Part shown: one piece after another, positions 1,525 to 62,940 of the stretch
How the letters are laid out: each line of letters opens with the position of its first letter
Position numbering within the stretch: position 1 is the stretch's first letter
Assembly: GCA_031425235.1 (NCBI GenBank)
Contig: JANPIZ010000004.1
Span: 66,251 to 130,250 of the forward strand
DNA from: Candidatus Nomurabacteria bacterium
Lineage (GTDB): Bacteria > Patescibacteriota > Minisyncoccia > Phycocordibacterales > UBA9973
Direction: 5' to 3'
DNA: 64,000 bases
The notes under the pieces: model-generated
What the model saw: only the letters and a program-made list of their open reading frames with translations
The model's database searches: none
Told to the model about the DNA's origin: nothing
Made by a program: the position numbers and the translations under genes

Positions 1525-1540
1525 AAAAATCTACTACGGG
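1525..1540. repeat. single arm of intergenic inverted-repeat family (AAAATCTACTACGGG)
   Basis: Same arm sequence as the paired copies at 10805, 20517, 23389, 41114 and 56289. Lies 25 nt upstream of the GIY-YIG gene start. Confidence 0.5.
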
Positions 1541-1582
1541 ATCCATCCATATAGTATAGCAAAATACTGCCTATTAGTAAAA

Positions 1583-1612
1583 CAAAAAACCACCCGATAA
1601 GGGTGGTTTTTT
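1583..1612. terminator. bidirectional intrinsic terminator
   Basis: aaaaaaccacccgataagggtggtttttt: perfect stem ccaccc/gggtgg with A/T runs on both sides. Confidence 0.65.
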
Positions 1613-1659
1613 GAATACTTTTTAAGGTGTATTAGCCAGACTGTATCTAATCTAACCTA

Positions 1660-3636
1660 TTAAGGAAGATTTAGGAATACAGGATCAGTCTTGTAGTCAC
1701 CAGGAAGATCGAAGTCAAATACGAAGTCGTCTCCACCAGCACCAGACAAGCCCCAACCGATAGCTTCAAGAGCAACTTGAGCGAATGCATCGCCAGTTGC
1801 AACTGCGCTAACAGTCAAAGTGATAGTTTCAGATGTGCCTTCTTCAATTAAGAATGCGACACCACCTTGTGTATCACCTGTTGATGTTGTAGTACAAGAA
1901 GCGGTATTGCTACCAGGGTTTGTAATACTAAATGAAGTAGCAGTAGATACTTCAGAACCATCGTTATCTTCTACACAAGTATTGTCGATTGCGATATCTC
2001 CATCAAATGCAGTAACTTTGTATTTGATTACGAATGTACCAATATCTCCAACAGTTGCAGTATCAGAAGATTGTTTTGATTCTGTAGCACTTACCAATTC
2101 AATATTGAATCCTACGTCGTAAGTAGCGTGAGCTTCACCTGCAGCTGTACCTGTAAGGTCAGCAGCACCTAATTCTTCACCACTTTCGTCTTCAGCTTCA
2201 ATAGCGTCAACTTCTGTACCTGTGAGCTCTACTTTTACAGTATCGCCATCATCAAGTACTCCACCAACGTCTTGTAAGCTTACAGAAACAGTGAATTTTA
2301 CTTCATCACCAGCTTCGATATCTATATCAAGATCATCGAAAGTAACAGCACCACCTGTAGGAACATCCTCAGTAGCTATTTCTTCCCCATCCATCCATAG
2401 TTTAGCTTCAACAACTATAACAGCTTCATCTGTTTCTCCAGTTGTTGTAATAAGAACTGGGATTTCAGTAACGTTTATGTCTGAATCTCCTTCCGCCTCA
2501 AGAGTGAAAGCAAGAACTTCAACATCGTCTGTATCATCAGAAGCGTCTACGTTGATAACGTGAGCATCGTTGATATCATCCTCAGCTGAATCCAAAGCAA
2601 CTTTCAACTCAGCATCAGATGCAGTAGCAAAATCTGCGAAGTCAAATGTTTCCTCAACTGTATCGTCAACAATTTCTTCGTCAACATCAAGTGTTAGAGT
2701 TTCTGTAGTTACAACTCCTTCAGCATCTTCGAATCGAACGTTTGATACACCTCCGTACCACACATCTGTATCAATATCGCCAGAATCAAGATTTGAAAGT
2801 GCACTTACAGCAACTGTGAACTCTTCAGTATCACCCTTTCGTACGATTGCACCGTCAAGAGAAACTGATTTTGACCATACATCGCTATTTTCAGAGAAAG
2901 AGTCTACGTCAGCTTCACCAACCTTTGTAGAACCCATCCAGATAGAAACTGATTCTGCGTAATCATCAAGATTTTCAGAGTCAGCTGCTGTTCCTTGGAA
3001 GAATTCAACTTTTACAGAAGTAACTTCAACGTCTGACTCATCGTCAGCTTCTACGTCGAAAGAAATAATTTCTACATCTTCCTCACCTTCACCAACCTCT
3101 TCACTTGAGTAAGATGAATTTGCTTCTATAGTGATTGAACCTGCTCCACCGGTTAGTGGACCACCAGTTGATGGTGTTGTTGTTGTACTATCACATTTCT
3201 TGCCAGTAGTTGGACTGTATCCAGCTGTTGATGAACAACCTGCTGGAAGTCCTGTTGATGGACCAGAAGTACATGGAAGACCAGTAGTTGTACTATATCC
3301 AGAAGCTGAAGTACAGCCAGCTGGGAAGTTACCACTAACAGAACCATTTAACGCAGCACGAGTCATAGGGCCAACGATACCGTCAGCAGTTAGACCCTTA
3401 CTTGTTTGGAAAGCCTTAACTGCAGCTAAAGTCATAGGACCGAAGCTACCGTCTGGGTTGGTTCCAACTTTTCCCTGAAGACATTGAACTTCAACGCCCT
3501 TAGAACCTAATTTCAATGTAACAGTGACTGCACAATCAGCTGAAGCTGGAGTTGCCTTAACAGCAACTGCACCTACGAACATAACTGCTACAACCAAAGT
3601 TCCAAGAAAGAATTTTGATTTTAATAAGTTACTCAT
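1660..3636 (-). CDS. cell-surface protein with two peptidoglycan-binding-like domains, S/T/G linker and a large acidic domain
   Basis: N-terminal signal/TM; two GPMT(L/R)AA(V/L)..(F/A)Q....L.ADGIVGP repeats (PG_binding_1-like); Cys-containing PAGC repeats; D/E-rich C-terminal two thirds. Confidence 0.55.
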   Translation of the reverse strand: MSNLLKSKFFLGTLVVAVMFVGAVAVKATPASADCAVTVTLKLGSKGVEVQCLQGKVGTNPDGSFGPMTLAAVKAFQTSKGLTADGIVGPMTRAALNGSVSGNFPAGCTSASGYSTTTGLPCTSGPSTGLPAGCSSTAGYSPTTGKKCDSTTTTPSTGGPLTGGAGSITIEANSSYSSEEVGEGEEDVEIISFDVEADDESDVEVTSVKVEFFQGTAADSENLDDYAESVSIWMGSTKVGEADVDSFSENSDVWSKSVSLDGAIVRKGDTEEFTVAVSALSNLDSGDIDTDVWYGGVSNVRFEDAEGVVTTETLTLDVDEEIVDDTVEETFDFADFATASDAELKVALDSAEDDINDAHVINVDASDDTDDVEVLAFTLEAEGDSDINVTEIPVLITTTGETDEAVIVVEAKLWMDGEEIATEDVPTGGAVTFDDLDIDIEAGDEVKFTVSVSLQDVGGVLDDGDTVKVELTGTEVDAIEAEDESGEELGAADLTGTAAGEAHATYDVGFNIELVSATESKQSSDTATVGDIGTFVIKYKVTAFDGDIAIDNTCVEDNDGSEVSTATSFSITNPGSNTASCTTTSTGDTQGGVAFLIEEGTSETITLTVSAVATGDAFAQVALEAIGWGLSGAGGDDFVFDFDLPGDYKTDPVFLNLP

Positions 3637-4117
3637 AAATTTTTATAATTTCTACGCCATTAATAAGTTTCGACAAAACTAAAAGCGTAATTTTCTTATC
3701 ATTATCTTACTCGTCATTAACTAATTAATAATTGCTAATAATGCGACGAATAAATAAATAATGAATAGAGATAAACATAATTGAAAACTAAATCTAAACA
3801 AATAGTATTTAATTTTCAATGACCTTACTTTTACCGAGAGATACACAATTGTATTGCTCGGCATTTATTTTCATACTGTATCACTTGAAATTTTTTCGAC
3901 GAAATTGCAAGCGAGGATCAGAACGAAAATAAATTATTGTTAGATTATGAATTACACAAAAAAATGCGCAGTTCATAACCACAACAACATTATAATATGG
4001 TGGCTCGAAACCGAGCAACAATATTATGTGGATAACTTACCCACGGATTACATATTTACATATTTTTGTCGAAAATGCAAATCAAAACCAAGGTCAGCAC
4101 CTGCTTATAATTGACGA

Positions 4118-4906
4118 TTAAAGAGGCAATTCATTACGTACTAAATCACCCTCAATTTTAAGTGAATATTTGCTCCAGCGTTTTTCTCCTTTTTTATCGA
4201 GGATGTTGTCTTTGACCATTGATACGAGCTCCCGTTGCAAGGTTTTTTCACCACAAGTAGCAAGAGCCGGTGAACCTTTCTGCTTTACTTCTGTTATGGT
4301 GGCGTTACCGTTATTGTCTTTTATTGCCTGGATGATATCTGCCCGACGTTGCTTTTTGAGGCCAAAAAATTGATTCTCAGAGCTATTATTTATGGGAAGA
4401 TTGATGCCTTTATTTTTATTATTGTCAGGTATTCTAAGGCGTGTTTCTGTCGACATCTGTTCAGCAAGCGAAACTTGAGGTTCTTTTAAAAATTCTTCGA
4501 GCCAGGCGTGGCTTACGATGCTCGTTTTTTGTTTAGTTTCTCCGAGAGTTTGATAGAAAATCATAAATTCTTTTTTTAGAATATTGCAGTTCATTTCAGA
4601 AATTAAATGGATAGTCAAAGAGATGTCCAATAGAGATAAAATAGCTTGTACTTTGTCCTTGATGTCTGACCTTGATTGGGAACTGATGTCCGATAAAATA
4701 TTAGCGCCAAGTGTCCTTAAGTTGAGGCGTATCGGTTCTGTTTTTTCAATGATGTCCGTGACAATATACAATGCCGTAATAAGCTTATTTAATTTTTGAT
4801 ATGAGTTGGTCATTGCTTGATCTTCTTCATAAAGGACATTCAAAGAAAGGTTGTCTTTTAAGAGATTTTTTGTAGTGTCCTTTATATTTTTATCATGTCC
4901 GAACAT
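4118..4906 (-). CDS. hypothetical protein with C-terminal winged-helix-like segment
   Basis: 262 aa; C-terminus RRADIIQAIKDNNGNATITEVKQKGSPALATCGEKTLQRELVSMVKDNIL resembles a wHTH DNA-binding fold; no family recognised. Confidence 0.4.
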   Translation of the reverse strand: MFGHDKNIKDTTKNLLKDNLSLNVLYEEDQAMTNSYQKLNKLITALYIVTDIIEKTEPIRLNLRTLGANILSDISSQSRSDIKDKVQAILSLLDISLTIHLISEMNCNILKKEFMIFYQTLGETKQKTSIVSHAWLEEFLKEPQVSLAEQMSTETRLRIPDNNKNKGINLPINNSSENQFFGLKKQRRADIIQAIKDNNGNATITEVKQKGSPALATCGEKTLQRELVSMVKDNILDKKGEKRWSKYSLKIEGDLVRNELPL

Positions 4907-4931
4907 ATGTCTTTTATATCATCAAGCGAGG

Positions 4932-4961
4932 GATAAAACAAGAGGTACCTCTTGTTTTATC
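4932..4961. promoter_or_regulatory. 30-bp perfect palindrome in a divergent promoter region (candidate operator)
   Basis: gataaaacaagaggtacctcttgttttatc equals its own reverse complement. It lies ~26 nt upstream of the 4118..4906 start and ~200 nt upstream of ftsK. Confidence 0.4.
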
Positions 4962-5111
4962 TCGATTGCCAATGATATATCGTAATCCATATGTGGGGCA
5001 CAGAAAATTGCAAGATACCTACTATAAAAAATAAACGCAATGTTCTAGAGATCTGGCCGCACCTAACTTGAGCAGAGCAATTTTTTTTATGTTAAAATAT
5101 ACATCATGGCA

Positions 5112-5150
5112 CCTGCCCGCAATGCTTTCAGCATAGCTGATGCAGGCGGG
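5112..5150 (+). repeat. copy of the ~39-nt palindromic mini-element (5' of ftsK)
   Basis: cctgcccgcaatgctttcagcatagctgatgcaggcggg. Forms a 17-codon mini-ORF (MAPARNAFSIADAGGKK) whose TGA overlaps the ftsK ATG (ATGA). Confidence 0.8.
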
Positions 5151-5155
5151 AAAAA

Positions 5156-7357: not shown

Positions 7358-7375
7358 TGTGGTATAGTAAGGATA

Positions 7376-7720: not shown

Positions 7721-7724
7721 TTGT

Positions 7725-10768: not shown

Positions 10769-10804
10769 GGCTCTTATACTAACAAAAAGTCTTTAAAAAG
10801 TAAA

Positions 10805-10864
10805 CCCCGTAGTGAATTTTGAAAAAAATATGGGTTTTAAACATTCTCAAAATCTACTACAGGG
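10805..10864. repeat. intergenic inverted-repeat element (family A), between TatD-like gene and rpsF
   Basis: ccccgtagtgaattttg ...26 nt... caaaatctactacaggg; arms are near reverse complements. Confidence 0.7.
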
Positions 10865-11693
10865 TAAAGACTCGCTTGGCATTTGCAAGAATTACTGCCG
10901 CAGCTTCTTCCTCAGGAATGTTCTTCAGCAGGGCAATTTTCTTAACTACTTCTCGCACATGTACTGGTTCATTTCTTTTACCTCTGTGTGGCGCTGGAGT
11001 TACATACGGGCAATCGGTTTCGGTCATTATACTGTCTAAAGGGATAAACTTGATCACTTCATCGTAGTCAGTCGTAAAAGTAATAACTCCGGTAAAAGAT
11101 AGCGTAAAACCAAAATCCAAAAATGCTTGCGCTTCAGGGATACCGCCGGCAAAAAAATGCACATCGCCTTTGACCTTGGCATGTTGTTTTAAAATTTCGA
11201 GCGCATCAAAATATGCATTTTTACTTTTGTCTTTTGGATTGTTGCGAATATGAAGCATAATCGGTTTATTCACTTCGTTGGCAAGTTCTATTTGAGCTAT
11301 TAATGCAGCTTTCTGTTTATCGATTGATTCATCGTCCATCCGATAGTAGTCGAGCCCACATTCCCCTATGCCGAGCACTTTTGGGTGTTTTAAAAGTTCT
11401 CGGTATGCATCTCTATCAAACACTTCACCGCGTGACGTAAACTCTTTACCACCCTCGCCCAATTCTTTTGTGTCGTGATATGAAGCTCCTGTGTGAATCG
11501 GATGTAGTCCCACAATAGCATACACATGTTCTGGATACTCGCTGATCATCTCTACAGCCTTGCGTGATGTATCTATCTGCGTGCCAACATTGATCACGAT
11601 GGTATTGTTATCAAGCGCACGCTTCATAACTTCATCTCGATCAGCATCGAAAGCATTAAAATTCACATGTGAATGTATATCTATGTATTTCAT
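10857..11693 (-). CDS. TatD-family metal-dependent hydrolase/DNase
   Basis: MKYIDIHSHV... (HxH motif), TatD-like length and motifs. ORF extends upstream to 11750 but MKYIDIH is the likely start. Confidence 0.8.
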   Translation of the reverse strand: MKYIDIHSHVNFNAFDADRDEVMKRALDNNTIVINVGTQIDTSRKAVEMISEYPEHVYAIVGLHPIHTGASYHDTKELGEGGKEFTSRGEVFDRDAYRELLKHPKVLGIGECGLDYYRMDDESIDKQKAALIAQIELANEVNKPIMLHIRNNPKDKSKNAYFDALEILKQHAKVKGDVHFFAGGIPEAQAFLDFGFTLSFTGVITFTTDYDEVIKFIPLDSIMTETDCPYVTPAPHRGKRNEPVHVREVVKKIALLKNIPEEEAAAVILANAKRVFTL

Positions 11694-20504: not shown

Positions 20505-20516
20505 ATATCATATTGT

Positions 20517-20554
20517 ACCCCGTAGTGAAGTTTTTTCAAAACTCTACTACAAGG
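20517..20554. repeat. intergenic inverted-repeat element (family A)
   Basis: ccccgtagtgaagtttttt-caaaactctactacaagg, 13 nt upstream of the start of gene 18564..20504. Confidence 0.65.
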
Positions 20555-20591
20555 TGTAGCACTTTACTAGAAATTTTAAAAAGTTGTTTTT

Positions 20592-23373: not shown

Positions 23374-23388
23374 CCTTATATTTTATCA

Positions 23389-23461
23389 CCCTGTAGTGAA
23401 TTTTGGAAATGCTCAAAGTACGTAAATTTAATAATTTACTTTTCCAAAATCTACTACGGGG
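23389..23461. repeat. intergenic inverted-repeat element (family A) between ileS 3' end and the start of gene 22141..23373
   Basis: ccctgtagtgaattttgg ...~38 nt... ccaaaatctactacgggg. Confidence 0.7.
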
Positions 23462-26400
23462 TATCAATTTTTACCTTAAATACCAAAGAGTCGGCTTTTA
23501 TTTCCCCGCCTGCACTAGCTGTGCTAGAAGCATTGCGGGCAGGTTCACCGTCGTTATTTTTAAAGTGTATGGTAGCAACTTGTACTGTTTTTTTCATATC
23601 CGCTTCGAATTTTTGAATCAATTTTTGTCCGTGCGCATCTGTTGCAAATGTGAGTGCCACTACGTCGCTCGGAGTCAAACCCATCTTTTTCCTCATATCC
23701 TGCAAGCCTCGTACAAGTTCACGATACGTTCCCTCTTCTTTTAATTCATGCGTGATCTTGGTATCGAGGGTAATTTTCGTGATACCTATTTTGATTTTTA
23801 CTAAATATTCAACATGTTTAATATTCAATTCATCTTTAATAATCTCGAGGTATTCTGGAGCCAAACTTTCAGCGATGATTTCCACTTGCTGCAGCGGCTG
23901 GCGAACTTTTATGCCTGCCTTCTGCCTGGCATCGAGACCGAGGGTAACAATATCTCGAGCAGTTTTCATCCGATCGATCACATTTGGTTTAAAAAAGAAG
24001 AAAAACTGAAATTTTTTCTTTGGCCACACGGAAAGATGCACGCTTTCCACATCAGTTTCATTTTTGAGCTGCTGCCAAATATCTTCCGCAGTAAACGGTG
24101 CAAATGGTGCTAATAGTTTTGATAAGGTTTTGAACACAAAATACAACGTTTTCTTTGCCTCAGCATCGCCTTCCTTTATTCGTTCTCGTGAGCGACGCAA
24201 ATACCATGTCGACAGGTCACCTATAAAATCGCGAATCGCACGTACGGGTTCGAGAAGTTTGTAATTATCTAAATGTTCAGTGGTTAATACTGTCAGTTCA
24301 TCAAGTCGAGCCAGTATCCATTGATCAAGTATGTTTGCTGACGTTGGTCTTTCGCTACTCTCTAAACTTGTATCTCGATACAATTCATAAAATGCAAGCA
24401 CGTTGTACAGCAAACTAAACACTTGCTGTGAAACTAACGCAACAGTTTTTTCATCAAAATTTTTCGATTCGCCTGGTTGATTGATCGAGTACATCCATAA
24501 GCGAATCGTGTCGACTCCGTATTTATCCATCATTGTCCAAGGGTCGACAATGTTACCAAGAGACTTTGACATTTTTTTACCTTTTGAATCAAGCAAATGC
24601 CCCAGACAAATTACATTTTTGTACGCCAATCCCCGACCCATAAGCACACCAACAGCATGCAACGTATAAAACCAGCCACGAGTCTGGTCGATGGCTTCGG
24701 AAATATAATCCGCTGGAAAACCAGGGCCCTCGACCCACTTTTTGTTTTCAAAAGGATAATGATCTTGAGCAAACGGCATCGCTCCGGAATCGAACCACAC
24801 ATCCATGACTTCTTTTGTTCGTGCAAGTTCACTACCACATACACAAACGAGCGTTACATTATCAATATATGGTCGATGTAAGTCGAGCTCATAATCTTCA
24901 TTGTGTGGTATGGTAACAAAATCAATTTGCTTATACTGTGCGTTCTTAAATAGAGCATTTTGTTCATTGCCACCCTTCTCCATAACTTCAGAGTGCCTGA
25001 AAAGTCCACCCGTCATCGCGATCGATTCGTCTACATTCAAGCCTTCGAGTACTGCATGCAACATCCAAATAGGTGCACCGTGCGAAATAATAAGAATTTT
25101 TTTATTTTTATGTTTTTCTTCGAGTTCGCAAAAAACATCTCCTATCCTTCTTTTTACATTGAGTAATGATTCACCACCATGGATAGGATTCAAAAATCTT
25201 TCCTTTTCATTTTTGAACATATCTCGATATTCATCCCAGGATTTGCCATTGAATTCTCCAGCGTCGAGTTCACCCAGCCTTTTATCGAAGACAATTTTAT
25301 TGTCTTCGATGCCTAATGATTTTTTTAGAATTTCCAATGTATCGCGTGTACGAACAAACGGAGACACCAATACAAAATCGAATTGAAGCCCTTCCTCTTT
25401 CATTTTTTTAGCTGAAGTTTCAACTTGTTGCTCTCCGACATTAGTGAGATGATCTTCATTCTCAACTCGCGATGATACCACGCCGTGTGGGCCACCCTTC
25501 ACATTACTTTCTGATTGCCCATGTCGCATGAGATAGTATTCGTTACCCGACTTTTTTGTTTTCTTTTTTAAATCTTCCACTCCCCCGACAACTTCTCTAG
25601 CATCACACGAATAACATTGCCATACCGGTAGAGGTGTGCCCCAATACCGCTCACGGGATATTGCCCAATCTTTTATTTCCCGCAACCATTCACCAAAGCG
25701 ACCATTTCTAATGTGGCTTGGCTCCCAGTTTATTTTTTGATTTTGGGAAATGAGTTCACTTTTAATTTTTCGATCTGACATCCGTATATACCATGAATCA
25801 CGTGCGTAGTAGATAAGCGCCGTTTTGCAACGCCAGCAATGTGGATATGAGTGTTTGTAGTTTTCTTGTTTGAAAAATAAATTTCTTTTCTTTAAGTCTT
25901 CTATGATATCGACTGCCAAAGTAGGTTTACCGTCGGTGTTAGTTTCTTTTACAAACCGGGCTTCCAAAAACCCTGTTCCTGAAACAAAGTTCCCTTCAGG
26001 GTTCACGAGATGATATTTAGGCAAGCCAATCTTTGTGCCAAGCACAAAGTCATCTTGACCATACATAACTGCAGTATGCACCACACCAGTACCATCTTCG
26101 ATGTTTACAAAGTCAGCAACATAAACTTTGAACATTTTTTCCGTAGATTCCCCTTTTTTCTCGAGCTGTTCTTTCAAAAATGGAAACAGTGGTTCGTATT
26201 CAAAACTGAGCAAATCCTTGCCTTTCATTTCTTCTGTAATTTCATATTCTCCACCGAGTATTTCAATTCTTTCTTTTGCTAATATTAAAAACTCATTTTC
26301 TTTTTTGACTTGTACGTATTCAATATCCTCACCTACAGCAAGAGCTACATTCCCGGGTAAAGTCCACGGAGTTGTCGTCCAAGCAAGTATGTATGTATTG

Positions 26401-27050
26401 TCCTCATTTTTTACTTTGAATTTTACATATACCGACAAATCTTTTACATCTTCGTATCCTTGTGCGAGTTCGTGCGAAGAAAGTGCGGTGCCACACCGTG
26501 GACACCATGGCACCACTTTATAGTCTTTATATAAAAGTTTCTGTTCATTAATTTTTGATACCACATTCCACAGTGACTCAATATATGTGTTATGATACGT
26601 CACATATGGATTGTCTTTATCTACCCAGTAGCCTACTCGGTCGCGATATTTATACCACACATCGACGTGTTTCCAGACACTTTCTTTGCATTTTTGATTA
26701 AATTCCGCGATACCAAAACTCTCAATTTCTCGTTTAGATTTGAGTCCAAGTTCTTTTTCGACGAGTAGCTCTACTGGCAAGCCATGGGTATCCCAGCCTC
26801 CCTTTCGGCGAACATGATACCCACGCATTGTTTTATATCGTGGAATCGCATCCTTGAATGATTGTGGAATGAGGTGATGTATACCTGGCATACCGTTTGC
26901 GGTTGGCGGTCCATCGTAAAATACAAATTCTTTTTTACCTTCAGTATTTTTTAAAGTTTTAGAAAAAATATTGTTCTCCTGCCAAAATTTTAAAACCTTT
27001 TCCTCGCGAAGAGCTTGCTCACTTTTTTGTTTTTTTTCTTGTTCGTCCAT
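23454..27050 (-). CDS. ileS: isoleucyl-tRNA synthetase with embedded histidine-phosphatase (PGAM-like) domain and a C-terminal mini-element insertion
   Basis: PTANGMPGIHH (HIGH region), KMSKSLGN, CP1 editing region; residues ~500-700 (YYLMRHGQSESN...SPFVRTRDT...LIISHGAPI) match the RHG histidine-phosphatase superfamily; [14 protein letters not shown] near the C-terminus. Confidence 0.9.
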   Translation of the reverse strand: MDEQEKKQKSEQALREEKVLKFWQENNIFSKTLKNTEGKKEFVFYDGPPTANGMPGIHHLIPQSFKDAIPRYKTMRGYHVRRKGGWDTHGLPVELLVEKELGLKSKREIESFGIAEFNQKCKESVWKHVDVWYKYRDRVGYWVDKDNPYVTYHNTYIESLWNVVSKINEQKLLYKDYKVVPWCPRCGTALSSHELAQGYEDVKDLSVYVKFKVKNEDNTYILAWTTTPWTLPGNVALAVGEDIEYVQVKKENEFLILAKERIEILGGEYEITEEMKGKDLLSFEYEPLFPFLKEQLEKKGESTEKMFKVYVADFVNIEDGTGVVHTAVMYGQDDFVLGTKIGLPKYHLVNPEGNFVSGTGFLEARFVKETNTDGKPTLAVDIIEDLKKRNLFFKQENYKHSYPHCWRCKTALIYYARDSWYIRMSDRKIKSELISQNQKINWEPSHIRNGRFGEWLREIKDWAISRERYWGTPLPVWQCYSCDAREVVGGVEDLKKKTKKSGNEYYLMRHGQSESNVKGGPHGVVSSRVENEDHLTNVGEQQVETSAKKMKEEGLQFDFVLVSPFVRTRDTLEILKKSLGIEDNKIVFDKRLGELDAGEFNGKSWDEYRDMFKNEKERFLNPIHGGESLLNVKRRIGDVFCELEEKHKNKKILIISHGAPIWMLHAVLEGLNVDESIAMTGGLFRHSEVMEKGGNEQNALFKNAQYKQIDFVTIPHNEDYELDLHRPYIDNVTLVCVCGSELARTKEVMDVWFDSGAMPFAQDHYPFENKKWVEGPGFPADYISEAIDQTRGWFYTLHAVGVLMGRGLAYKNVICLGHLLDSKGKKMSKSLGNIVDPWTMMDKYGVDTIRLWMYSINQPGESKNFDEKTVALVSQQVFSLLYNVLAFYELYRDTSLESSERPTSANILDQWILARLDELTVLTTEHLDNYKLLEPVRAIRDFIGDLSTWYLRRSRERIKEGDAEAKKTLYFVFKTLSKLLAPFAPFTAEDIWQQLKNETDVESVHLSVWPKKKFQFFFFFKPNVIDRMKTARDIVTLGLDARQKAGIKVRQPLQQVEIIAESLAPEYLEIIKDELNIKHVEYLVKIKIGITKITLDTKITHELKEEGTYRELVRGLQDMRKKMGLTPSDVVALTFATDAHGQKLIQKFEADMKKTVQVATIHFKNNDGEPARNASSTASAGGEIKADSLVFKVKIDTP
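23504..23543 (-). repeat. palindromic mini-element copy in frame in ileS
   Basis: Reverse complement is identical to the recA copy (cctgcccgcaatgcttctagcacagctagtgcaggcgggg). Confidence 0.85.
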
Positions 27051-27060: not shown

Positions 27061-27290
27061 ATTAAAAAAACTCGTCCCCGTACAACAATACAAGATTGTT
27101 ATACAAGGACGAGTTTCATCGCCAGAGGCGATCAAGTCGTGGTACCACCTTGTTTCAAGCCTACTAAAATTATAGAGCTTCTTAATTGTAGCTATTACGG
27201 GCATGCCCGTCGGGTTCTACTCTGTTATTCACAGTTCCTCCCGAAGCTCAGAGGTGATAGCCTCTTCAACGCTCGTGTAAAAATAATACC
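27061..27290 (-). promoter_or_regulatory. T-box riboswitch leader upstream of ileS (candidate Ile AUC specifier)
   Basis: Minus strand: extended -10 TGgTATTAT; T-box sequence AAGGTGGTACCACGA (matches GGTGGNACCGCG); UGGU bulge compatible with discriminator A73 of tRNA-Ile; terminator hairpin aactcgtcc...ggacgagttttttt directly before the ileS ATG; AUCA in a loop (gaggCUAUCAccuc). Confidence 0.75.
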
Positions 27291-39433: not shown

Positions 39434-41113
39434 TTAATATATATCTTCTACTCTTAATCTTAACTCTTCTCTACCTCTAAATCTAGACAGGTCAAAAGTA
39501 GCGAGTAGATTTACATTTAATCCTTCAGCTAAAGGCTTTTTAAAAGATTCCGTATTGGAGAAGAAAGAAATTGCCACAACTTTGTAGTGCTTACTACTAT
39601 TTATGTCAGAAAAAATAATTTCCAAATGTTCCCCGGACCCATTTTTGCCGAACTTTTTCAATTTTTCTATTTTCACTCCCTCAAACAAAAAAACTGGTTT
39701 TTCATTAGCCAGACCAAAAGGTGACATTTTTTCTATCTCACGCCAATTTCTCATATTCACCATATCGAGTGTAGAGTGTATATCATACAATATTTCATTT
39801 TTGGTTTTTTCTTTTTTAATTTTATGAAAAGAATCAGATAAGGCTTCTTCTAAAAAATGAATTTTATCATGATGAACCGTAAAACCACCTGCGAGTTCGT
39901 GTCCACCATGTTCTAGAAATGACCCGGAAGTTGCCCCCATAAGTTCCACCACTGATACTGAGCCATTGCTTCGACACGAACCCTTTATACAGTCATTTTC
40001 ATCTTTTCCCCATACAAACACCGGTCGTTCGTGCTCGTCCATTATTTTACCTGCCACTAACCCCAAGACACCGACACGCCATTCTGGATTTCCCACCACT
40101 ATTACGGGAGACATTTCTTCTACATTTCTTTTTTCTAATTTCTTATTAACATCACGCATGATACCGGTGACAATAGTTTTTCTCTCGTCGTTTATTTTTG
40201 TCAGATGTTTGGCTAAGATATCAGCCTGAGCTTCATCTTCAGTAGACAAAAGTTCAAATGCTCGCATTGGATCGTCCATGCGGGATGCGGCATTCAGTCT
40301 CGGGGTCACCATAAAACCGATATCGTCTTCGGATATAGTTTTTTGATCTATTTTTATTTTTGCCAAAAGTTTTTGCAAGCCAGGCCTTCTCGATTTTCTA
40401 AAAACTTTCACCCCAAAGTATGCCAGCGCTCTATTTTCTCCGGTAAGTGGAACCATATCAGAGAGTGTCGCCAAGCCTGCCATGTCGAGCATCCATTTTT
40501 CTGCGCCTTTTGCTATATTAAATTTCTGATTTTCCGTACCATATTTCTTTATAAATCCTTGAGATAATTTAAATGCTACGCCCGCACCGCAAAGCATTTT
40601 TTCTGGGTATTCATCTACTTTTGGATTTAAAATTGCATAGGCACGAGGCAATACTTCGTGTGGTAAATGATGATCCGTAATTATGACATCAATACCGTCT
40701 ACTAATGCCTGTGCCACTTCTTCTACTGCAGTAATCCCTAAATCTACTGTAATAATTAATTTCACATTACTTTTTGCAAATATTTCTATCGCTTCTAAAT
40801 TTAATCCATACCCTTCACTATTTCTCTGGGGAATATATACTTTAAAATTCGTATACTTAACTAGTTTAAATAAGTCACATAAAATAACTGCTCCAGGGAT
40901 ACCATCGCAATCATAATCAGCATAGATTAATATTTTTTCATTTGCCTCAATGGCTTCAAATATTCTCACACACGCACGCTCCATGTCGCGCATTAAAAAT
41001 GGGTCATGCAGGTCCCTCTCGTAGTTTGGACTCAAGAAAATGTCAGCTTGTGTTTCATTCACAATTCCACGTTTTTCTAAAAGAATCCTTAATAATTCGC
41101 CATACTTTTGCAT
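39434..41113 (-). CDS. recJ: single-stranded-DNA-specific exonuclease RecJ
   Basis: DHH family motifs (YADYDCDGIPG, ITDHH), DHHA1 region GGHELAGG, C-terminal OB-like domain. Confidence 0.85.
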   Translation of the reverse strand: MQKYGELLRILLEKRGIVNETQADIFLSPNYERDLHDPFLMRDMERACVRIFEAIEANEKILIYADYDCDGIPGAVILCDLFKLVKYTNFKVYIPQRNSEGYGLNLEAIEIFAKSNVKLIITVDLGITAVEEVAQALVDGIDVIITDHHLPHEVLPRAYAILNPKVDEYPEKMLCGAGVAFKLSQGFIKKYGTENQKFNIAKGAEKWMLDMAGLATLSDMVPLTGENRALAYFGVKVFRKSRRPGLQKLLAKIKIDQKTISEDDIGFMVTPRLNAASRMDDPMRAFELLSTEDEAQADILAKHLTKINDERKTIVTGIMRDVNKKLEKRNVEEMSPVIVVGNPEWRVGVLGLVAGKIMDEHERPVFVWGKDENDCIKGSCRSNGSVSVVELMGATSGSFLEHGGHELAGGFTVHHDKIHFLEEALSDSFHKIKKEKTKNEILYDIHSTLDMVNMRNWREIEKMSPFGLANEKPVFLFEGVKIEKLKKFGKNGSGEHLEIIFSDINSSKHYKVVAISFFSNTESFKKPLAEGLNVNLLATFDLSRFRGREELRLRVEDIY

Positions 41114-41179
41114 CCCAGTAGTAAAATTTAAAATAATAATGCCTATCCTTATGTACCGTAATCAAAAATTTACTACGGG
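41114..41179. repeat. intergenic inverted-repeat element (family A) in divergent recJ/HIT promoter region
   Basis: cccagtagtaaaattt ...~38 nt... aaaaatttactacggg. Confidence 0.65.
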
Positions 41180-41224
41180 ACAGGTAAATTGAATTTTAAC
41201 ATATATAAGTTATAATCTATACAC

Positions 41225-56195: not shown

Positions 56196-56288
56196 TTTGC
56201 TCGTAAAAAATAACCCTATGGCTTTTACGAGTCATAAGGTTATTTTTTTTGACAAAATACACTAATATATATAAGATACATATACTTG

Positions 56289-56354
56289 TCCCGTAGTAAA
56301 TTTTTGATTACGGAACATAAAAATACACCTTATTAGTTAAAATTTTACTACTGG
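56289..56354. repeat. intergenic inverted-repeat element (family A) in tig 5' UTR, abutting the start codon
   Basis: cccgtagtaaatttttg ...~33 nt... aaaattttactactggg then ATG; upstream TTGACA-17-TAAGAT candidate promoter at ~56249. Confidence 0.7.
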
Positions 56355-56355
56355 G

Positions 56356-57465
56356 ATGCTAAAAACAAAAATCACAAAACTACCAAAAAGTGAGGTTGAA
56401 ATAGAGGGTTCACTACATGAAGACGCCTTTGAACAGTACTACAGCAAGGCACTTAAAAACATAGGCGCAAATGTAGAGCTTGATGGATTTAGGAAAGGTA
56501 AAGTTCCTGAAAGTGTTCTTGTTTCTAACATTCCAGAAAATCATATATTGGAAGAAATGGCTCAGCTTGCAATAAACGAACACTACCCCAACATATTAGA
56601 AAGTGAAAAAATTGATGCTATCAGTCGACCAGAAATTTCCATTACTAAACTCGCTCGAAAAAATCCACTTGAGTTTAAAATCAAAACAGCGATATTACCG
56701 CACATAACACTCCCTGACTATAAAACAATAGCCAAAGATATCTCGGCAAGTGTTACCGATGCAGAAAAAAATGTAGTGGTGTCTGACGATGATGTCGAAA
56801 ATGCTATTTTGGATATTAGAAAATCTCGTGCGCCGCGAACACATGTAACGGAAGTAGCTACAGAGGAGAACAAAGAAACACCCGAAAACACAGAACCAAA
56901 AGTAGAACCTGCCCGCAATGCTTCTGACATAGCTGATGCAGGCGGGGAACTCCCAGAATTCAATGATGAATTTGTGAAAAATCTTGGACCATTTGAAAAT
57001 GTCAAAGATTTTAAAAATAAATTAAAAATAAATTTGAAACTCGAGAAAGAAAACGCTCAGAAAGAAAAAACAAGATTGAAAATCATTGAAGAAATAATTG
57101 AAAAAAGCCATCTTGAAGTACCTGAAATTCTTATTGATATCGAAGTCAATAAAATTTTGCAAAAAATGGAAGCAGATATAACTCAAATGGGCTTAAAATT
57201 TGAGGATTATTTAAAGCACATAAACAAAACCATTGAAGACTTAAAAAAAGAATTCCGCATTGATGGCGAGAAAAAAGCTAAACTTTCACTTATCTTAAAT
57301 GAAATATCTAAGGTAGAAAAGATAGTCCCCGATCCTGAGCTTGTAAAAAAAGAAGTCGAGGCTATCATGGAACACTACAAAGATGCTGACCTCGAACGAG
57401 CAATAATGCATGTAGAAAATGTGTTAGTTAATGATCAAATTTTCAAACTTCTTGAAACTCAATAA
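56356..57465 (+). CDS. tig: trigger factor (short form, apparently lacking PPIase domain) with in-frame mini-element insertion
   Basis: DGFRKGKVP hallmark; 369 aa; PARNASDIADAGG inserted just before conserved ELPEFNDEF. Confidence 0.8.
   Translation: MLKTKITKLPKSEVEIEGSLHEDAFEQYYSKALKNIGANVELDGFRKGKVPESVLVSNIPENHILEEMAQLAINEHYPNILESEKIDAISRPEISITKLARKNPLEFKIKTAILPHITLPDYKTIAKDISASVTDAEKNVVVSDDDVENAILDIRKSRAPRTHVTEVATEENKETPENTEPKVEPARNASDIADAGGELPEFNDEFVKNLGPFENVKDFKNKLKINLKLEKENAQKEKTRLKIIEEIIEKSHLEVPEILIDIEVNKILQKMEADITQMGLKFEDYLKHINKTIEDLKKEFRIDGEKKAKLSLILNEISKVEKIVPDPELVKKEVEAIMEHYKDADLERAIMHVENVLVNDQIFKLLETQ
56908..56947 (+). repeat. palindromic mini-element copy in frame in tig
   Basis: cctgcccgcaatgcttctgacatagctgatgcaggcgggg (central hairpin degenerate in this copy). 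Confidence 0.85.
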
Positions 57466-57518
57466 AGGAGGGGAAATCATAAGTTGAAAAAAGTTGGGAA
57501 AAGATATATTATGTATTT

Positions 57519-58124: not shown

Positions 58125-58127
58125 AAA

Positions 58128-60020: not shown

Positions 60021-60294
60021 CTTATTCTATCACAGATAATTAAGACAGAAAATAAAGAATTCCCTGCAAGTAGACAAAATACCGCTAATCTGTTATACTA
60101 TTTTTGTTAATTTACAAATTTATTTTCTTAATTTTTAGTCGGGTTCACAAGAATATCCATATATTATTATGTTTTCAAAAGAAACAAGAGAAGATACAAT
60201 CATAGAAATTTTCCCAATCTCTTTGTGTAAAATTTTTTTAGGGAAACAGAGCCGAATATATAATGGCTTGTTCTTGTAGGCTTGAAACAAGCTT

Positions 60295-61827
60295 ATGAGC
60301 ATAACATTAATCACAATTCTAATAAGCGCACTGGCGCTTCTTTTAGGTGTTGGAGTAGGATACTATTTGCGTTTCATTATAGCCCTTGGCAAGAGACGCT
60401 CAATCGAAATAGATATCAAGCAAATGATGGTTGGCGCGAAAGAAGAATCGCAAAAAATCATTGATGAAGCAAAAAAGATATCAGAAACAAGGCTCGCGGA
60501 ATTAAAAGAAGAAGAGAAGAAAAAAGAGCAAGAATTCAAAGAAACTGAAAAAAGACTCATCAAAAAAGACGAGTTTCTTGATGGGCGCCAAACTGAGATA
60601 GATAAAGAAGTAGAAAATATAAAAACAAAGGTAGAAGAAATAAAGAAAATACAAGAAAAAGTTCAGAAAACAGAAGCTGAAAAGACTCTCGAGCTCGAAC
60701 GAGTATCTCAGCTTTCTAAAGAAGAGGCAAAGGAAGAATTACTTAAAGATGTTGAGAAAAATTACGAGGAAGATCTTGTCGTCCGAATTCAAAAACTTGA
60801 AAATGGCAATGAAGAGAAGTTGGAGCGCCGAGCAAAAGACATATTGGCTACAAGCATCCAACGTCTCGCTAAAAGTACGGCCTCTGAGCTCATGACCACA
60901 GTGGTCACTATCACCAACAACGAAATGAAAGGTAAAATCATCGGTAAAGAGGGGCGAAATATCCGCGCGTTCGAACGAGCGGCAGGTGTCGAACTTATCG
61001 TCGATGATACTCCAGGCTCGATAGTCATTTCTTCATTTGATCCTATTCGTAGACAAGTCGCTCGTCTTGCACTCGAAAACCTGATTCTCGATGGACGTAT
61101 CCAGCCAGCTAAAATAGAAGAGCTCGTCGAAAAAGCTAAGGAAGAAATCAATAAGATCATTAAAGAAAAAGGTGAACAAGCAGTATACGAATGCGGCATA
61201 TTCAATCTCGACCCACGCATCGTGGCTATTGTCGGTCGGCTATATTTCCGTACCAGCTTCGGACAAAATGTACTCCAACACTCAATAGAGATGGCCCACA
61301 TCGCCGGCATGATCGCTGAGGAACTTGGTGCTGATGTTGCCATAGCAAAAGCCGGCGCCCTCGTTCACGACATAGGAAAAGCTCTCGACCATGAAGTACA
61401 AGGTACGCACGTGGATATCGGTATGCGTATATTGCAGAAATTTGGTGCTGATGAACGCATTGTGACAGCTATGAAGAGTCATCACGAAGCATACCCATAT
61501 GAAACTGTTGAATCTATCATCGTTCAGACCGCCGATGCAATATCTGGCGGACGCCCTGGAGCACGACGTGACTCAGTTGAAAATTATTTGAAACGACTGC
61601 AAGAGCTCGAAACCCTTGTAAATGCATTCCCTGGCATCGAAAAATCCTATGCTCTTCAAGCTGGCCGTGAGATCCGCATATTTGTAACACCCGAAAAGGT
61701 AACTGATGCCGAAGCAAAGATCATGGCTCGCGATATGGCTATAAAAATAGAACAAGAACTCAAATATCCAGGTGAAATCAAAGTCACTATGATCCGAGAA
61801 ACACGTATTATCGAATACGCTCGTTAA
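60295..61827 (+). CDS. rny: ribonuclease Y
   Basis: N-terminal TM, coiled coil, KH domain (GKIIGKEGRNIRAFE), HD domain (HSIEMAHIAGMIA...VHDIGK). Confidence 0.9.
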   Translation: MSITLITILISALALLLGVGVGYYLRFIIALGKRRSIEIDIKQMMVGAKEESQKIIDEAKKISETRLAELKEEEKKKEQEFKETEKRLIKKDEFLDGRQTEIDKEVENIKTKVEEIKKIQEKVQKTEAEKTLELERVSQLSKEEAKEELLKDVEKNYEEDLVVRIQKLENGNEEKLERRAKDILATSIQRLAKSTASELMTTVVTITNNEMKGKIIGKEGRNIRAFERAAGVELIVDDTPGSIVISSFDPIRRQVARLALENLILDGRIQPAKIEELVEKAKEEINKIIKEKGEQAVYECGIFNLDPRIVAIVGRLYFRTSFGQNVLQHSIEMAHIAGMIAEELGADVAIAKAGALVHDIGKALDHEVQGTHVDIGMRILQKFGADERIVTAMKSHHEAYPYETVESIIVQTADAISGGRPGARRDSVENYLKRLQELETLVNAFPGIEKSYALQAGREIRIFVTPEKVTDAEAKIMARDMAIKIEQELKYPGEIKVTMIRETRIIEYAR

Positions 61828-61971
61828 AAAACTATTATTTTTAATTTTTTAACTGCATTTTGATGAGCTTGCCCTTAAAAAACCCTTACTATATAATACT
61901 AAGAGACTACTAACGTAGTAATTATAGGCTTAATTTGGTCGAAAGAATTATAAAACTAACTTTTTAAAAAT

Positions 61972-62244
61972 ATGAATAAACAAGCATTAGCGGATTTAGT
62001 ACACGGAAAACTAGGTGGTACAAAAGTACAAGCTGAAGAAGTAGTGGACGGTTTGTTTGAGGCTATTATCGGAACTTTGAAAAAAGGTGGTGAAGTTTCA
62101 ATAGCTGGTTTTGGTATCTTTTCTGTAAAAGGACGTGCAGCGCGTATGGCTCGTAATCCAAAAACTGGAGAACAAGTCAAAGTAGCTGCAAAGAAAGTTC
62201 CAAAATTTCGACCTGCAAAAGGTTTGAAGGACGCTGTAGCGTAA
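61972..62244 (+). CDS. hup: DNA-binding protein HU
   Basis: 90 aa, GFGIFSVKGRAARMARNPKTGE arm. Confidence 0.9.
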   Translation: MNKQALADLVHGKLGGTKVQAEEVVDGLFEAIIGTLKKGGEVSIAGFGIFSVKGRAARMARNPKTGEQVKVAAKKVPKFRPAKGLKDAVA

Positions 62245-62261
62245 ATTATCTCCTTACACAA

Positions 62262-62296
62262 AACAAAAAACACCCTTGTCGGGTGTTTTTTGTTTT
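62262..62296. terminator. bidirectional intrinsic terminator between hup and lexA
   Basis: aaaacaaaaaacacccttgtcgggtgttttttgtttt. Confidence 0.7.
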
Positions 62297-62305
62297 AGTA
62301 GTGAT

Positions 62306-62872
62306 TTAATATTTTCGAATGACTGCTTTTAGTACTGCATTGATATTTAAAGAATGTTCGGGATATATCGGCTGGTAGTTTTTGTTCGCTGGTTCAAGCC
62401 ACGATTTACTTCCCTCTTTTCTAAAGTATTTCATAGTAAATTCTCCATCTACTTCGGCTATAACTATCTGTCCGTCGCGAGCCGTGTTTGCCCGTTCCAC
62501 TAAAATCATATCACCAGGCTCTATATGCGCATCTATCATTGAGTCACCATCTACCTCAAGCATGTAGGTGAGAGATTTATTTTTCACGAGCATATCATCG
62601 AGGTTCACAGTGTCAGCCAATTCTTCCTCTACGCTCGCTGGCAAACCAGCTGTTACAAAACCAAGTTTTGGAATTTCTCCAAATGTTTCTGAGGGAGTAA
62701 GTCGGCCAAGATGATCTTTGGTTACTATTCCCGATTCCATTAGTTTTTCGACAACCTTAAATACAGCATTTTTAGATTTGAAACCAAAGAGCTGCATCAT
62801 CTCGGTATATGTAGGCATTCGTTTATTGTCAGAATAAAAAGATTCTATTTTTGTTTGATAAATATTCCGCAT
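62306..62872 (-). CDS. lexA: LexA repressor
   Basis: N-terminal wHTH, S24 peptidase domain with GDSM (Ser) and FTMKYF (Lys) motifs. Confidence 0.85.
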   Translation of the reverse strand: MRNIYQTKIESFYSDNKRMPTYTEMMQLFGFKSKNAVFKVVEKLMESGIVTKDHLGRLTPSETFGEIPKLGFVTAGLPASVEEELADTVNLDDMLVKNKSLTYMLEVDGDSMIDAHIEPGDMILVERANTARDGQIVIAEVDGEFTMKYFRKEGSKSWLEPANKNYQPIYPEHSLNINAVLKAVIRKY

Positions 62873-62940
62873 CCCGGTACTAAAATTTTAAATTGTAATT
62901 TTTAATGATCATATATATTTTGTTGAATTTAGTACGGGAC
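62873..62940. repeat. variant inverted repeat (GTACT arms) between small SOS ORF and lexA
   Basis: cccggtactaaaatttt ...~35 nt... gaatttagtacggg; resembles family A but with GTACT instead of GTAGT core. Confidence 0.5.

Follow-up and report, generated by a model that had tools for sequence, protein, structure and literature searches.

Paired intergenic repeats in a Patescibacteria genome are probably copies of a small transposable element, one version of which carries a GIY-YIG nuclease gene

Bacterial MITEs (the Neisseria Correia CREE, RUP and families described in PMC10969869 and PMC2229807) are short (35-140 bp), non-coding sequences with terminal inverted repeats and target-site duplications. 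They occur in many copies per genome, lie in intergenic DNA near gene starts, are co-transcribed as hairpins, and may bring in promoter elements or displace existing ones. All of these properties are shared by a family of paired repeats in the window, by which we denote the whole 64,000-nucleotide stretch analysed here (Candidatus Nomurabacteria bacterium, contig JANPIZ010000004.1, positions 66,251 to 130,250). Unlike those known families, this element has arms that are near-identical in several named Patescibacteria lineages despite unrelated interiors, its inner stem covaries and carries an invariant tandem mismatch, and a start codon is often part of its duplication. Its coding relative, moreover, carries only a 90-aa GIY-YIG nuclease and no known transposase.

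Like the UPF0213/prokaryotic Slx1-like proteins (B. halodurans BH0048, PDB 1zg2; E. faecalis EF2693, PDB 1ywl; E. coli YhbQ), this nuclease is a minimal GIY-YIG domain (~90-100 aa) that has the same catalytic residues and lacks a conserved C-terminal Asn. The UPF0213/Slx1 family is viewed as vertically inherited and repair-related, with selfish GIY-YIG genes placed in the UvrC/homing-endonuclease lineage (PMC1564403), whereas here the gene is framed by inverted repeats and duplications and its locus differs between lineages. The free-standing homing endonucleases of the GIY-YIG type in phages (the I-TevI catalytic domain; Seg, Mob) are likewise selfish genes that lie between host genes and are expressed from neighbouring signals; the element differs from them in that its protein has no long recognition domain and in the presence of terminal inverted repeats, duplications and ORF-less derivatives. 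REP/REPIN units are palindromes of 20-40 bp whose GTAG or CGTC tag is unpaired, and they flank RAYT genes (PMC3733652). In the model proposed below, the element would resemble REP/REPIN-RAYT systems and IS200/IS605 (HUH) elements in that its short structured ends are recognised as folded hairpins whose irregularities are conserved, and in that its non-autonomous doublets depend on a single small gene present in one copy; unlike them, it has a different class of enzyme, target duplications and arms that are not self-palindromic.

Searching the window for the arm motif CCCGTAGTRAATTTT with at most two mismatches gave 11 matches, against 0.40 expected (maximum of 3 in 100 shuffles), and these resolve into seven inverted pairs. 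The pairs that the original prediction had placed at 10805-10864, 20517-20554, 23389-23461, 41114-41179 and 56289-56354 are all present, and the GTACT variant it had noted upstream of lexA is itself a pair (62873-62938) adjoining the lexA ATG at 62872. What had been taken for a single arm at 1525-1540 pairs with a second arm 282 nt away, at 1229-1243, and an ORF lies between the two. The copies and the features associated with them are as follows.

1224-1546, minus strand: full-length, ORF-bearing element with its target-site duplication, identified from the sequence and from an empty orthologous site in genome L309
1526-1540 and 1229-1243, minus strand: left and right arms of the full-length element
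1542-1546 and 1224-1228, minus strand: duplication ATGGA of the full-length element (TCCAT on the plus strand)
1243-1515, minus strand: 90-aa GIY-YIG nuclease gene of the UPF0213/Slx1 branch (Pfam PF01541, E = 4.6e-19)
632-1228, minus strand: host gene downstream of the full-length element
10800-10868, minus strand: short ORF-less copy at rpsF-ssb; arms 10806-10820 and 10849-10863; direct repeat GTAAA at 10800-10804 and 10864-10868
20514-20558, minus strand: minimal ORF-less copy with a 5-nt loop; arms 20519-20533 and 20539-20553; direct repeat TGTA
23384-23466, minus strand: short ORF-less copy at ileS; arms 23390-23404 and 23446-23460; direct repeat TATCA
41114-41185, minus strand: type B ORF-less copy at recJ; arms 41115-41129 and 41165-41179
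56284-56355, plus strand: type B ORF-less copy at tig; arms 56290-56304 and 56340-56354; left flank ACTTGT
62873-62944, minus strand: GTACT-variant type B copy at lexA; left flank ACTTGT

Complementarity between the arms extends to ~21 bp rather than the 15-17 nt first assigned to them, and includes an invariant 2-nt mismatch. At stem positions 9-10, 29 of 29 copies carry a tandem A·C/G·T mismatch, with AG in one arm and GA in the other, and the inner five pairs show compensatory changes. The fraction of stem cells that are paired is 96.5% (27 copies) compared with 82.4% in shuffles, both sides have changed in 64 stem cells compared with 21, and the covariation score is 0.361 compared with 0.106, values that were reached in none of 500 shuffles; this covariation is not proof of a folded DNA substrate, since binding of both ends by one protein in each subfamily would also be expected to produce it. 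The arm is not self-complementary, and the GTAG within it is base-paired with the opposite arm. Spacing between arms ranges from 1 to ~300 nt across copies. The description of the spacers as non-conserved fails for the recJ and tig copies (and for copies in other genomes), which have a common spacer, TGATTACGGWACATAA..., but is not contradicted for all.

The distance of 0-45 nt to a start codon can be refined: three copies lie 14-37 nt from an ATG and four abut it, directly (0 nt) at the 632-1228 gene and with a single intervening G at recJ (G at 41114, ATG at 41113), tig (G at 56355, ATG at 56356) and lexA (G at 62873, ATG at 62872). The six ORF-less copies in the window are 35-71 bp long. 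The rpsF-ssb copy is placed at the −35-like TTTACT of the rpsF-ssb promoter, and the stop codon of a tatD-like gene (10857-10859) falls within its arm; the copy at 20514-20558 is placed at TGCTACAAT (an extended −10), with the start codon of the 646-aa gene 7 nt downstream. The type B copy at tig sits between the tig promoter (TTGACA-17-TAAGAT) and the start codon, and the one at recJ has a conserved left flank (ACCTGT) and a conserved interior (TGATTACGG...ATTATT). The GTACT variant is also found ahead of tig in two other genomes (L169 and L174). An upstream ORF running through the type B copies is not conserved between those of tig and recJ. Type A copies are mixed in orientation to the downstream gene, and ORF-bearing start-codon copies and type B copies face it; a rule that the element always faces the downstream gene, although it fits the window copies, was rejected, both for these mixed copies and for one ORF-bearing cassette (L313) whose arms are flipped relative to its ORF.

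Direct repeats of at least 4 nt flank 27 of 32 short copies; they are 4-7 bp long and vary in sequence, whereas shuffling the pairing of left and right flanks yields a mean of 3.5 copies with a repeat (maximum of 10 in 2000 trials). Type B copies (recJ, tig, lexA) have no recognisable duplication. We know of no target duplications made by REPINs. Presence and absence of the element is polymorphic at orthologous sites. At 1224-1546, the L309 orthologue reads uninterrupted (...TATAGG-ATGGAAAAC) where the window has ATGGA-T-(element)-ATGGAAAAC; written as filled and empty sites, these are ...TATGG ATGGA T(312 bp)ATGGAAAACAATACA and ...TATAGG ATGGAAAACAATACA. The tig start carries ORF-less variants in the window, L165 (duplication ATGAA), L169 and L174, a full cassette in L122, and no element in L154, L156 and L172, where the same promoter lies 6 nt from the ATG. 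At ileS, the arm of the copy supplies the stop codon TAG (23454-23456), and deleting the element and one repeat in silico restores ...VKIDKI* TAA GG ATG. The flanking duplications and empty sites show that the repeats arrived by insertion. A strict start-codon target was rejected, as ORF-bearing copies also occur at TATAA and GTTGC and short copies at TTGAC-like sites.

The same arms recur in related genomes. Scanning genome contigs with the 15-mer gave mostly chance single matches, so a partner arm was then required; among the 120 genome matches listed, paired arms are confined to Patescibacteria or unclassified-bacteria loci and one Dehalococcoidia-binned MAG (L074). Different genomes have unrelated genes downstream of the copies (tig, bipA, lexA, recJ, an AHSA1-domain gene, a Wzy_C-domain gene and an FtsX gene). 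Viral contigs, taken as a negative control, contain 72 single-arm matches and no partner arm, and so give no sign of a phage vector; a nuclease homologue is likewise absent from 50,697 phage records.

The protein encoded at 1243-1515 has the GIY and YIG motifs, the catalytic Arg and Glu and the beta-beta-alpha-beta-alpha core of the GIY-YIG fold (AlphaFold model, pLDDT 86, order E-E-H-E-H-H), and its 90-aa model holds no extra DNA-binding domain of the homing-enzyme kind. Y3, Y5, Y16, G18, R26, H30 and E50 (window-protein numbering) are invariant in 23 homologues. No invariant Asn follows E50, and the nearest structures are 1zg2, 1ywl and Slx1 rather than UvrC or I-TevI: phmmer against the PDB returns 1zg2 (3.5e-4), 1ywl and SLX1 at modest E-values, and Foldseek returns 1zg2, then Slx1, then I-TevI. 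Among 1195 homologues, the best 120 are 70-93% identical, and many homologues lie on contigs <2 kb. The coding element is found in ten independent contexts, in each of which the GIY-YIG gene fits exactly between the same arms; the homologues in the nine contexts outside the window have 72-93% identity. In the window, the 3′ end of the gene overlaps the right arm, which its stop codon abuts, and a −10-like TATACT stands 6 nt ahead of the upstream ATG copy. Seven of the ten cassette duplications start with the host gene ATG (ATGGA in the window, at bipA and in L310; ATGAA at tig and at the AHSA1-domain gene; ATGAT at lexA; ATGA at the Wzy_C-domain gene); the others are GTTGC (L313), TATAA (L315) and none (L235). 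Between the window and the L122 genome, identity is 90% for the nuclease, compared with 47% for Tig, 36% for Ppa and 75% for NusA. In each lineage, a given nuclease variant was seen in a single genomic context, so that recent bursts yielding many copies of the full element are not observed.

Together, these sequence comparisons favour insertion elements over regulator sites, and the repeats are probably copies of one family of small DNA transposable elements spread through Patescibacteria. The complete element would be ~312-320 bp long, with two ~21-bp terminal inverted repeats (T/C-CCCGTAGTAGATTTT+5 ... 5+AAAATTCACTACRGG-A/G) around a single GIY-YIG gene of 88-96 codons, and the other six window copies would be ORF-less derivatives (MITEs). 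The earlier suggestion, one of several, that the repeats could be REP/MITE-like survives in its MITE part, on the variable direct repeats, the filled and empty sites and the coding version, and fails in its strict (RAYT-associated) REP part. Insertion would duplicate a 4-5 bp target (apparent 4-7 bp) of roughly TGRA or TNNNA, and the sites that persist would be start codons (A|TGRA) and −35/−10 promoter hexamers of leaderless host genes. From its exclusive association with the arms, we infer that the Slx1/UPF0213-like nuclease is the mobilising enzyme. It would recognise the ends, probably in a folded form (hairpin or cruciform) that the invariant tandem mismatch marks, and its cuts would mobilise both full and ORF-less copies. 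Conserved arms had been read as a sign of protein recognition, which is probably right, with the element's own nuclease and not a global regulator as the most likely protein. GIY-YIG enzymes are not known to act as transposases. Those characterised make nicks or 2-nt 3′ staggered breaks, which do not by themselves give a 4-5 bp duplication.

By crude gene calls in the window, SD-like motifs precede 0 of 57 genes, and TANNNT lies 5-8 nt before the ATG in 20 of 57 (background of 9%). The genome thus looks leaderless, and expression of the element probably relies on the promoter of the host gene and on translational re-initiation. In a start-codon copy, a leaderless mRNA from the host promoter would begin at the duplicated ATG, a mini-ORF of 3-7 codons would terminate within the left arm, 7-21 nt short of the nuclease ATG, and the host ATG would follow 14-23 nt after the nuclease stop. 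In the absence of Shine-Dalgarno sites from the genome, translation of the nuclease as well as of the host gene would then depend on termination and re-initiation. A further, tentative step is that the 312-bp unit may be an autonomous transposon that encodes a single protein, the 90-residue Slx1-like GIY-YIG nuclease, which would act on folded ends. It would then form a new class among prokaryotic transposable elements. Specialised for leaderless genomes that lack SD motifs, it would insert at start codons and be expressed by re-initiation without silencing the host gene. If autonomous, it would be the smallest autonomous DNA transposon to our knowledge. A literature search found no description of such a GIY-YIG transposon or Patescibacteria element, and only primer coincidences for the arm sequence.

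Inverted terminal repeats with 4-5 bp duplications are also the classic signature of DDE transposition. The short copies could accordingly be MITEs, and the 312-bp unit a passenger-carrying MITE, mobilised in trans by a conventional (e.g. DDE) transposase encoded elsewhere, with the GIY-YIG gene as cargo (a repair or defence nuclease, for example) or as a separate selfish gene. The want of known GIY-YIG transposases and the apparently single-copy state of the full element in each lineage fit this reading, yet we consider it rather unlikely. In 1.7 Mb of related sequence, a search for a larger unit with these arms (420-6000 bp apart) returned only juxtaposed separate copies or chance matches. 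The exact fit of the gene between the arms in ten independent contexts, its 3′ end overlapping the right arm, and the far better conservation of the GIY-YIG protein than of host proteins also speak against a cargo role.

It is more doubtful that the gene is a free-standing homing endonuclease that cuts empty alleles and is copied in by repair, with regulatory or protective repeats and short copies as decayed remnants. The GIY-YIG fold is common to I-TevI, and the same positions (the tig and lexA starts) are hit in different lineages. Homing, however, creates neither terminal inverted repeats nor variable target duplications, and a long specific site without ends or duplications is not what we find: the insertion sites have only ~4-5 bp (about TGRA) in common, the 90-aa protein has no extra DNA-binding domain, and the short copies keep perfect arms around unrelated interiors, which decay would not preserve.

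The original prediction favoured a protein-binding or RNA-structure role. We regard it as very unlikely that the repeats are host regulatory hairpins under selection, whether operators of a global regulator (e.g. SOS) or RNA attenuator, terminator or processing stems. Window copies do precede lexA, recJ and rpsF-ssb, one also lies just downstream of recO, and transcription of the tig, recJ and lexA leaders must run through their type B copies. Folding is strong for type A copies (DNA fold z = −3.9 at rpsF-ssb, −3.4 at 20514-20558 and −6.8 at 23384-23466), but type B folds are weak (z = −1.5 to −2.7) and no U-tract follows the stem. The variable spacing, the unrelated downstream genes and the occurrence of type A copies in either orientation are at odds with the fixed half-site spacing and coherent regulon of an operator such as the LexA box, and the marks of insertion favour the MITE reading instead. 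Rfam 15 at gathering score has no match in the window; at E<=1, four cassettes gave none for the element and only a rimP-leader match elsewhere in L122. ARAGORN detected no tRNA or tmRNA. An RNA hairpin is plausible as a by-product, given that transcription must cover several of the copies, rather than as the reason for the repeats' existence, and individual copies may have been secondarily exapted as regulatory elements. Mobilisation as REP/REPIN units by a RAYT (Y1 HUH) transposase is scarcely credible: the arms do contain GTAG, the tag of one REP superfamily, as inverted doublets (PMC3733652), but the arm is no palindrome, its GTAG is paired in the stem rather than unpaired, target duplications are present and the associated gene is GIY-YIG, not RAYT. 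Integron attC cassettes were dropped as a candidate, with arms on both sides of the gene and no integrase noticed among the genes examined.

Should the nuclease mobilise the element, as we propose, it would be a new enzyme class for prokaryotic transposition and would lower the minimum size of an autonomous element. The view of Slx1-branch GIY-YIG proteins as purely vertically inherited repair enzymes (PMC1564403) would be contradicted, and the many small genes that carry the annotation 'GIY-YIG nuclease family protein' in Patescibacteria genomes would be explained. The element may also account for assembly breaks at these genes, many homologues lying on very short contigs. For annotation, the ileS and tatD-like stop codons and the tig, recJ and lexA leaders are element-derived, and the arms can conveniently serve to mark Patescibacteria DNA and recent gene flow between its lineages. 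The family would offer a concrete case of how a parasite can occupy the start codon in a streamlined genome, one with no SD motifs detected, and leave the host gene unsilenced.

We scanned the window (G+C 38%) with the arm motif CCCGTAGTRAATTTT at two or fewer mismatches and obtained 11 matches (0.40 expected; maximum of 3 in 100 shuffles), all as inverted pairs, which bears out the repeat family of the original prediction. The genome is of Patescibacteria (CPR) type, the window proteins are divergent housekeeping genes, and the contig is also present in a Logan assembly. The pairs without an ORF were confirmed by reading the sequence; such ORF-less copies fall into two classes, denoted type A and type B.

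Arm pairs in the window
1229-1243 and 1526-1540: arm pair, exact frame around an ORF at 1243-1515 (-)
10806/10863: inverted arm pair, type A
20519/20553: inverted arm pair, type A
23390/23460: inverted arm pair, type A
41115/41179: inverted arm pair, type B, at recJ
56290-56354: inverted arm pair, type B, at tig
62873-62938: GTACT variant pair, type B, at lexA

The arm at 1526-1540 had been taken to be a single one; it has its partner at 1229-1243, and the ORF between them encodes a GIY-YIG nuclease (Pfam PF01541, E = 4.6e-19).

Direct repeats flank most short copies. In 27/32 of these, the 4-7 nt adjoining the element on its left recur directly on its right (for example GTCAA, GTTGAC, TGCTA, TATCA, GTAAA and ATGCTAT); random re-pairing of left and right flanks gave a mean of 3.5 such copies and a maximum of 10 in 2,000 trials. 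Inverted-repeat ends with variable flanking direct repeats are the signature of transposition. Empty orthologous sites confirm that the copies are insertions. A relative with an orthologue of the window 198-aa gene (L309, 63% identity), in which the upstream terminator is also kept, has the empty site ...TTATTATAGG-ATGGAAAACAATACA, and the filled site in the window reads ...CTATATGG-ATGGA-T-[element]-ATGGAAAACAATACA. In three relatives without an element at tig (L154, L156, L172), the start reads TTGACA-17-TAAGAT-6-ATG; in the window, 12 nt and then a 65-nt element stand between this promoter and the tig ATG. Two further tig loci (L169 and L174) carry a GTACT-variant element at the ATG, and another (L165) a variant element with the duplication ATGAA. 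That the repeats are mobile insertion elements is, in our judgment, highly probable. Of the earlier interpretations, the MITE option is upheld by the duplications and empty sites, and the regulator or RNA role that had been favoured is set aside as the primary explanation. Short elements also occur nested or in tandem (L084 2072-2180; L097 1416-1547; L011 about 1425-1530), with one element inside another and some pairs having one common GTTGAC, as expected for repeated insertion into one kind of target.

The arms had been described as near reverse complements of 15-17 nt. The complementarity holds and the length does not, as it extends over 21 bp in 29 copies once these are all turned the same way. 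The outermost pair differs with the site: C-G where a copy sits at a promoter-like site, T-A where it sits at a start codon. In 29/29 copies, the left arm has AG at positions 9-10 and the right arm GA (read as complement), so that folding creates a tandem mismatch, A·C next to G·T. The innermost five pairs vary with compensation (GGCAT/ATGCC, CGGCT/AGCCG, GCCAT/ATGGC, GGAAA/TTTCC). In a 27-row alignment, 96.5% of cells are paired (82.4% in shuffles), 64 cells are changed on both sides (21 in shuffles) and the covariation score is 0.361 (0.106 in shuffles), values reached by 0/500 shuffles; sliding the partner by 1-3 columns lowers pairing to 33-53%. These alignment statistics favour ends that must pair, as they would in a hairpin or cruciform substrate; similar covariation could also arise if two sites bound by one protein evolved together. 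As single strands, type A copies fold well (z = -3.4 to -6.8); folding is weak for type B (z = -1.5 to -2.7).

In type A copies the inner stems are G+C-rich, and the interiors are unrelated and often hairpins themselves, consistent with the non-conserved spacer first reported; type B copies depart from it in having a common interior, TTTTTGATTACGG...ATTATTA, which resembles the sub-terminal sequence of the cassette, the full-length element with its nuclease gene. Type A duplications resemble -35 or -10 hexamers, and across genomes these copies lie in either orientation. Type B copies (window recJ, tig and lexA; L053, L056, L071, L169 and L174 elsewhere) share the left flank ACYTGT, lack a recognisable duplication, and always face the downstream gene, with a single G between copy and ATG (8/8). 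Among 43 elements of type A, type B and ORF-bearing kinds, a gene start is faced by the sense side only in 19, the antisense side only in 7 (all type A), both sides in 6 and neither in 11. The ATG-proximal arms of the window type B copies (41165-41179, 56340-56354, 62873-62887) contain TAAAAT or a close variant (TAAATT at recJ) 12 nt before the ATG. Judged by its sequence, this right-arm hexamer might serve as a -10 box that faces outward and yields a very short leader.

At two places in the window, the upstream gene ends at a stop codon that the element provides: ileS (23454-56) and a tatD-like gene (10857-59). If the ileS-side element is taken out together with one repeat, the normal junction ...TAA GG ATG returns. 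The ileS gene has further features of its own. A T-box leader with a GGTGGTACCACG box and terminator hairpin lies upstream (27102-27278, -); its score of 46 bits (E = 3.8e-9) lies under the Rfam gathering score of 93, and the default Rfam scan therefore missed it. IleRS itself (1198 aa, 23454-27050, -) contains an inserted histidine-phosphatase/phosphoglycerate-mutase-like domain (residues about 497-680) that splits the synthetase match in two.

The nearest solved sequences to the window nuclease are UPF0213 BH0048 (1zg2), EF2693 (1ywl) and SLX1, and its AlphaFold model (pLDDT 86) retrieves 1zg2, Slx1 and I-TevI in that order with Foldseek. Residues Y3, Y5, Y16, G18, R26, H30 and E50 (window-protein numbering) are invariant in 23 homologues. 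These lack a conserved C-terminal Asn, the hallmark of the Slx1 branch (PMC1564403). Of the 1,195 homologues, the best 120 are 70-93% identical. We fetched contigs for nine homologues (72-93% identical), and the same arms frame the nuclease gene in 9/9. One of these cassettes lies in the gap before rpsL, and the others precede tig, bipA, lexA, an AHSA1-domain gene, a Wzy_C-domain gene, an FtsX gene, a 111-aa gene and a 215-aa gene. With the window copy there are ten independent contexts, with the duplications ATGGA, ATGAA, ATGGA, ATGAT, ATGAA, ATGA, ATGGA, TATAA, GTTGC and none; in 7/10 the duplication starts with the ATG of the co-oriented host gene. The window nuclease shares 90% identity with that of the L122 genome, compared with 47% for Tig, 36% for Ppa and 75% for NusA, which fits horizontal spread or very strong constraint. 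In L122, a Patescibacteria contig, positions 3988-4073 (+) weakly match the Gammaproteobacteria rimP leader model (35.7 bits, E = 0.015, under the gathering score of 47), probably by chance. In the cassette at L313 1091-1405 (duplication GTTGC), the AG/GA arm asymmetry is flipped relative to the ORF, as if arm-to-arm recombination had inverted the interior; before rpsL, some 300 nt further downstream, is another variant hairpin (CCCCGTGTAGTAATTTGTGG...).

Different inverted repeats (CCCGCC..GGCGGG, CCCTGTTAAAT..ATTTAACAGGG, GTCATTC..GAATGAC) frame other small GIY-YIG genes (L142/L144 3881-4144; L309 3407-3679; L163 2181-2426; L084 2446-2643), which are about 87-90 aa long, with identities of 36-49% or lower. 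One such gene follows lexA in L142, L144 and L148 and is absent from L143 and L145. These genes suggest a wider superfamily of such cassettes.

A 15-mer arm search of one genome per species (596 Gb) matched at least 120 loci; the majority are single matches due to chance, in bacteria of every kind. At about 35 loci among the matches listed, a second arm lies inverted at a distance of 1-110 nt. The records are titled Nomurabacteria, Paceibacterota, Moranbacteria, Nealsonbacteria, Zambryskibacteria, Saccharibacteria, "Patescibacteria group" and unclassified "bacterium", with the sole exception, among the matches listed, of a MAG binned as Dehalococcoidia (L074). Viral contigs, used as a control, gave 72 exact single-arm matches and none with a partner arm. 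Looking for the motif in related genomes, as had been proposed, finds, among the matches listed, that the arms are a feature of many Patescibacteria lineages.

The sole protein associated with the arms is a minimal nuclease of the structure-specific Slx1 branch, and the ends resemble a structured substrate in which one irregularity is fixed. In ORF-less copies the interiors drift while the ends are kept perfectly. In the simplest reading, the nuclease would recognise the folded ends and cut there and at TGRA-like targets, and ORF-less copies would be mobilised in trans. The main rival is that an unseen conventional transposase moves the elements and the GIY-YIG gene is cargo. Three points weigh against nuclease-driven movement: we know of no GIY-YIG transposase, known GIY-YIG cuts alone do not account for a 4-5 bp duplication, and the full element looked to be present once in each lineage. 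A search of 1.7 Mb of sequence found no larger unit with these arms at its ends. On balance, we lean towards the full model, in which the nuclease mobilises the elements. Readings as homing genes, REP/RAYT elements or regulator sites are each at odds with one or more of their defining features.

In their behaviour the short copies resemble Correia elements and other bacterial MITEs, and the nuclease belongs with UPF0213/Slx1-like stand-alone GIY-YIG domains. Such proteins have been treated as vertically inherited repair proteins, with selfish GIY-YIG genes placed in the other, UvrC/HEase, lineage (PMC1564403). Full-text literature, with incomplete coverage, yielded no GIY-YIG gene framed by inverted repeats with target duplications and no MITEs described in Patescibacteria, which a large MITE survey does not mention. 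We file the element as MITE/IS-like; that it represents a new transposon class is a tentative possibility.

In crude window gene calls, a Shine-Dalgarno-like motif 4-10 nt upstream of the ATG is found in 0/57 genes (background 7%) and TANNNT 5-8 nt before the ATG in 20/57 (background 9%); the remaining genes start close behind the preceding stop codon. Based on these features, the lineage appears to use leaderless mRNAs and re-initiation. Many tig relatives have a terminator and then TTGACA-17-TAxxxT-6/7-ATG. At cassettes, a -10-like box (TATACT in the window, TATAAT in L232 and L310) lies 6-7 nt before the duplicated ATG, which opens a mini-ORF, M(N/D)PVV(D/E)F-stop or MIP-stop, ending within the left arm. 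From the mini-ORF stop to the nuclease ATG downstream there are 7-21 nt, and from the nuclease stop to the host ATG 14-23 nt. From this arrangement, we infer that the cassette would borrow the host promoter and hand ribosomes on to the host gene.
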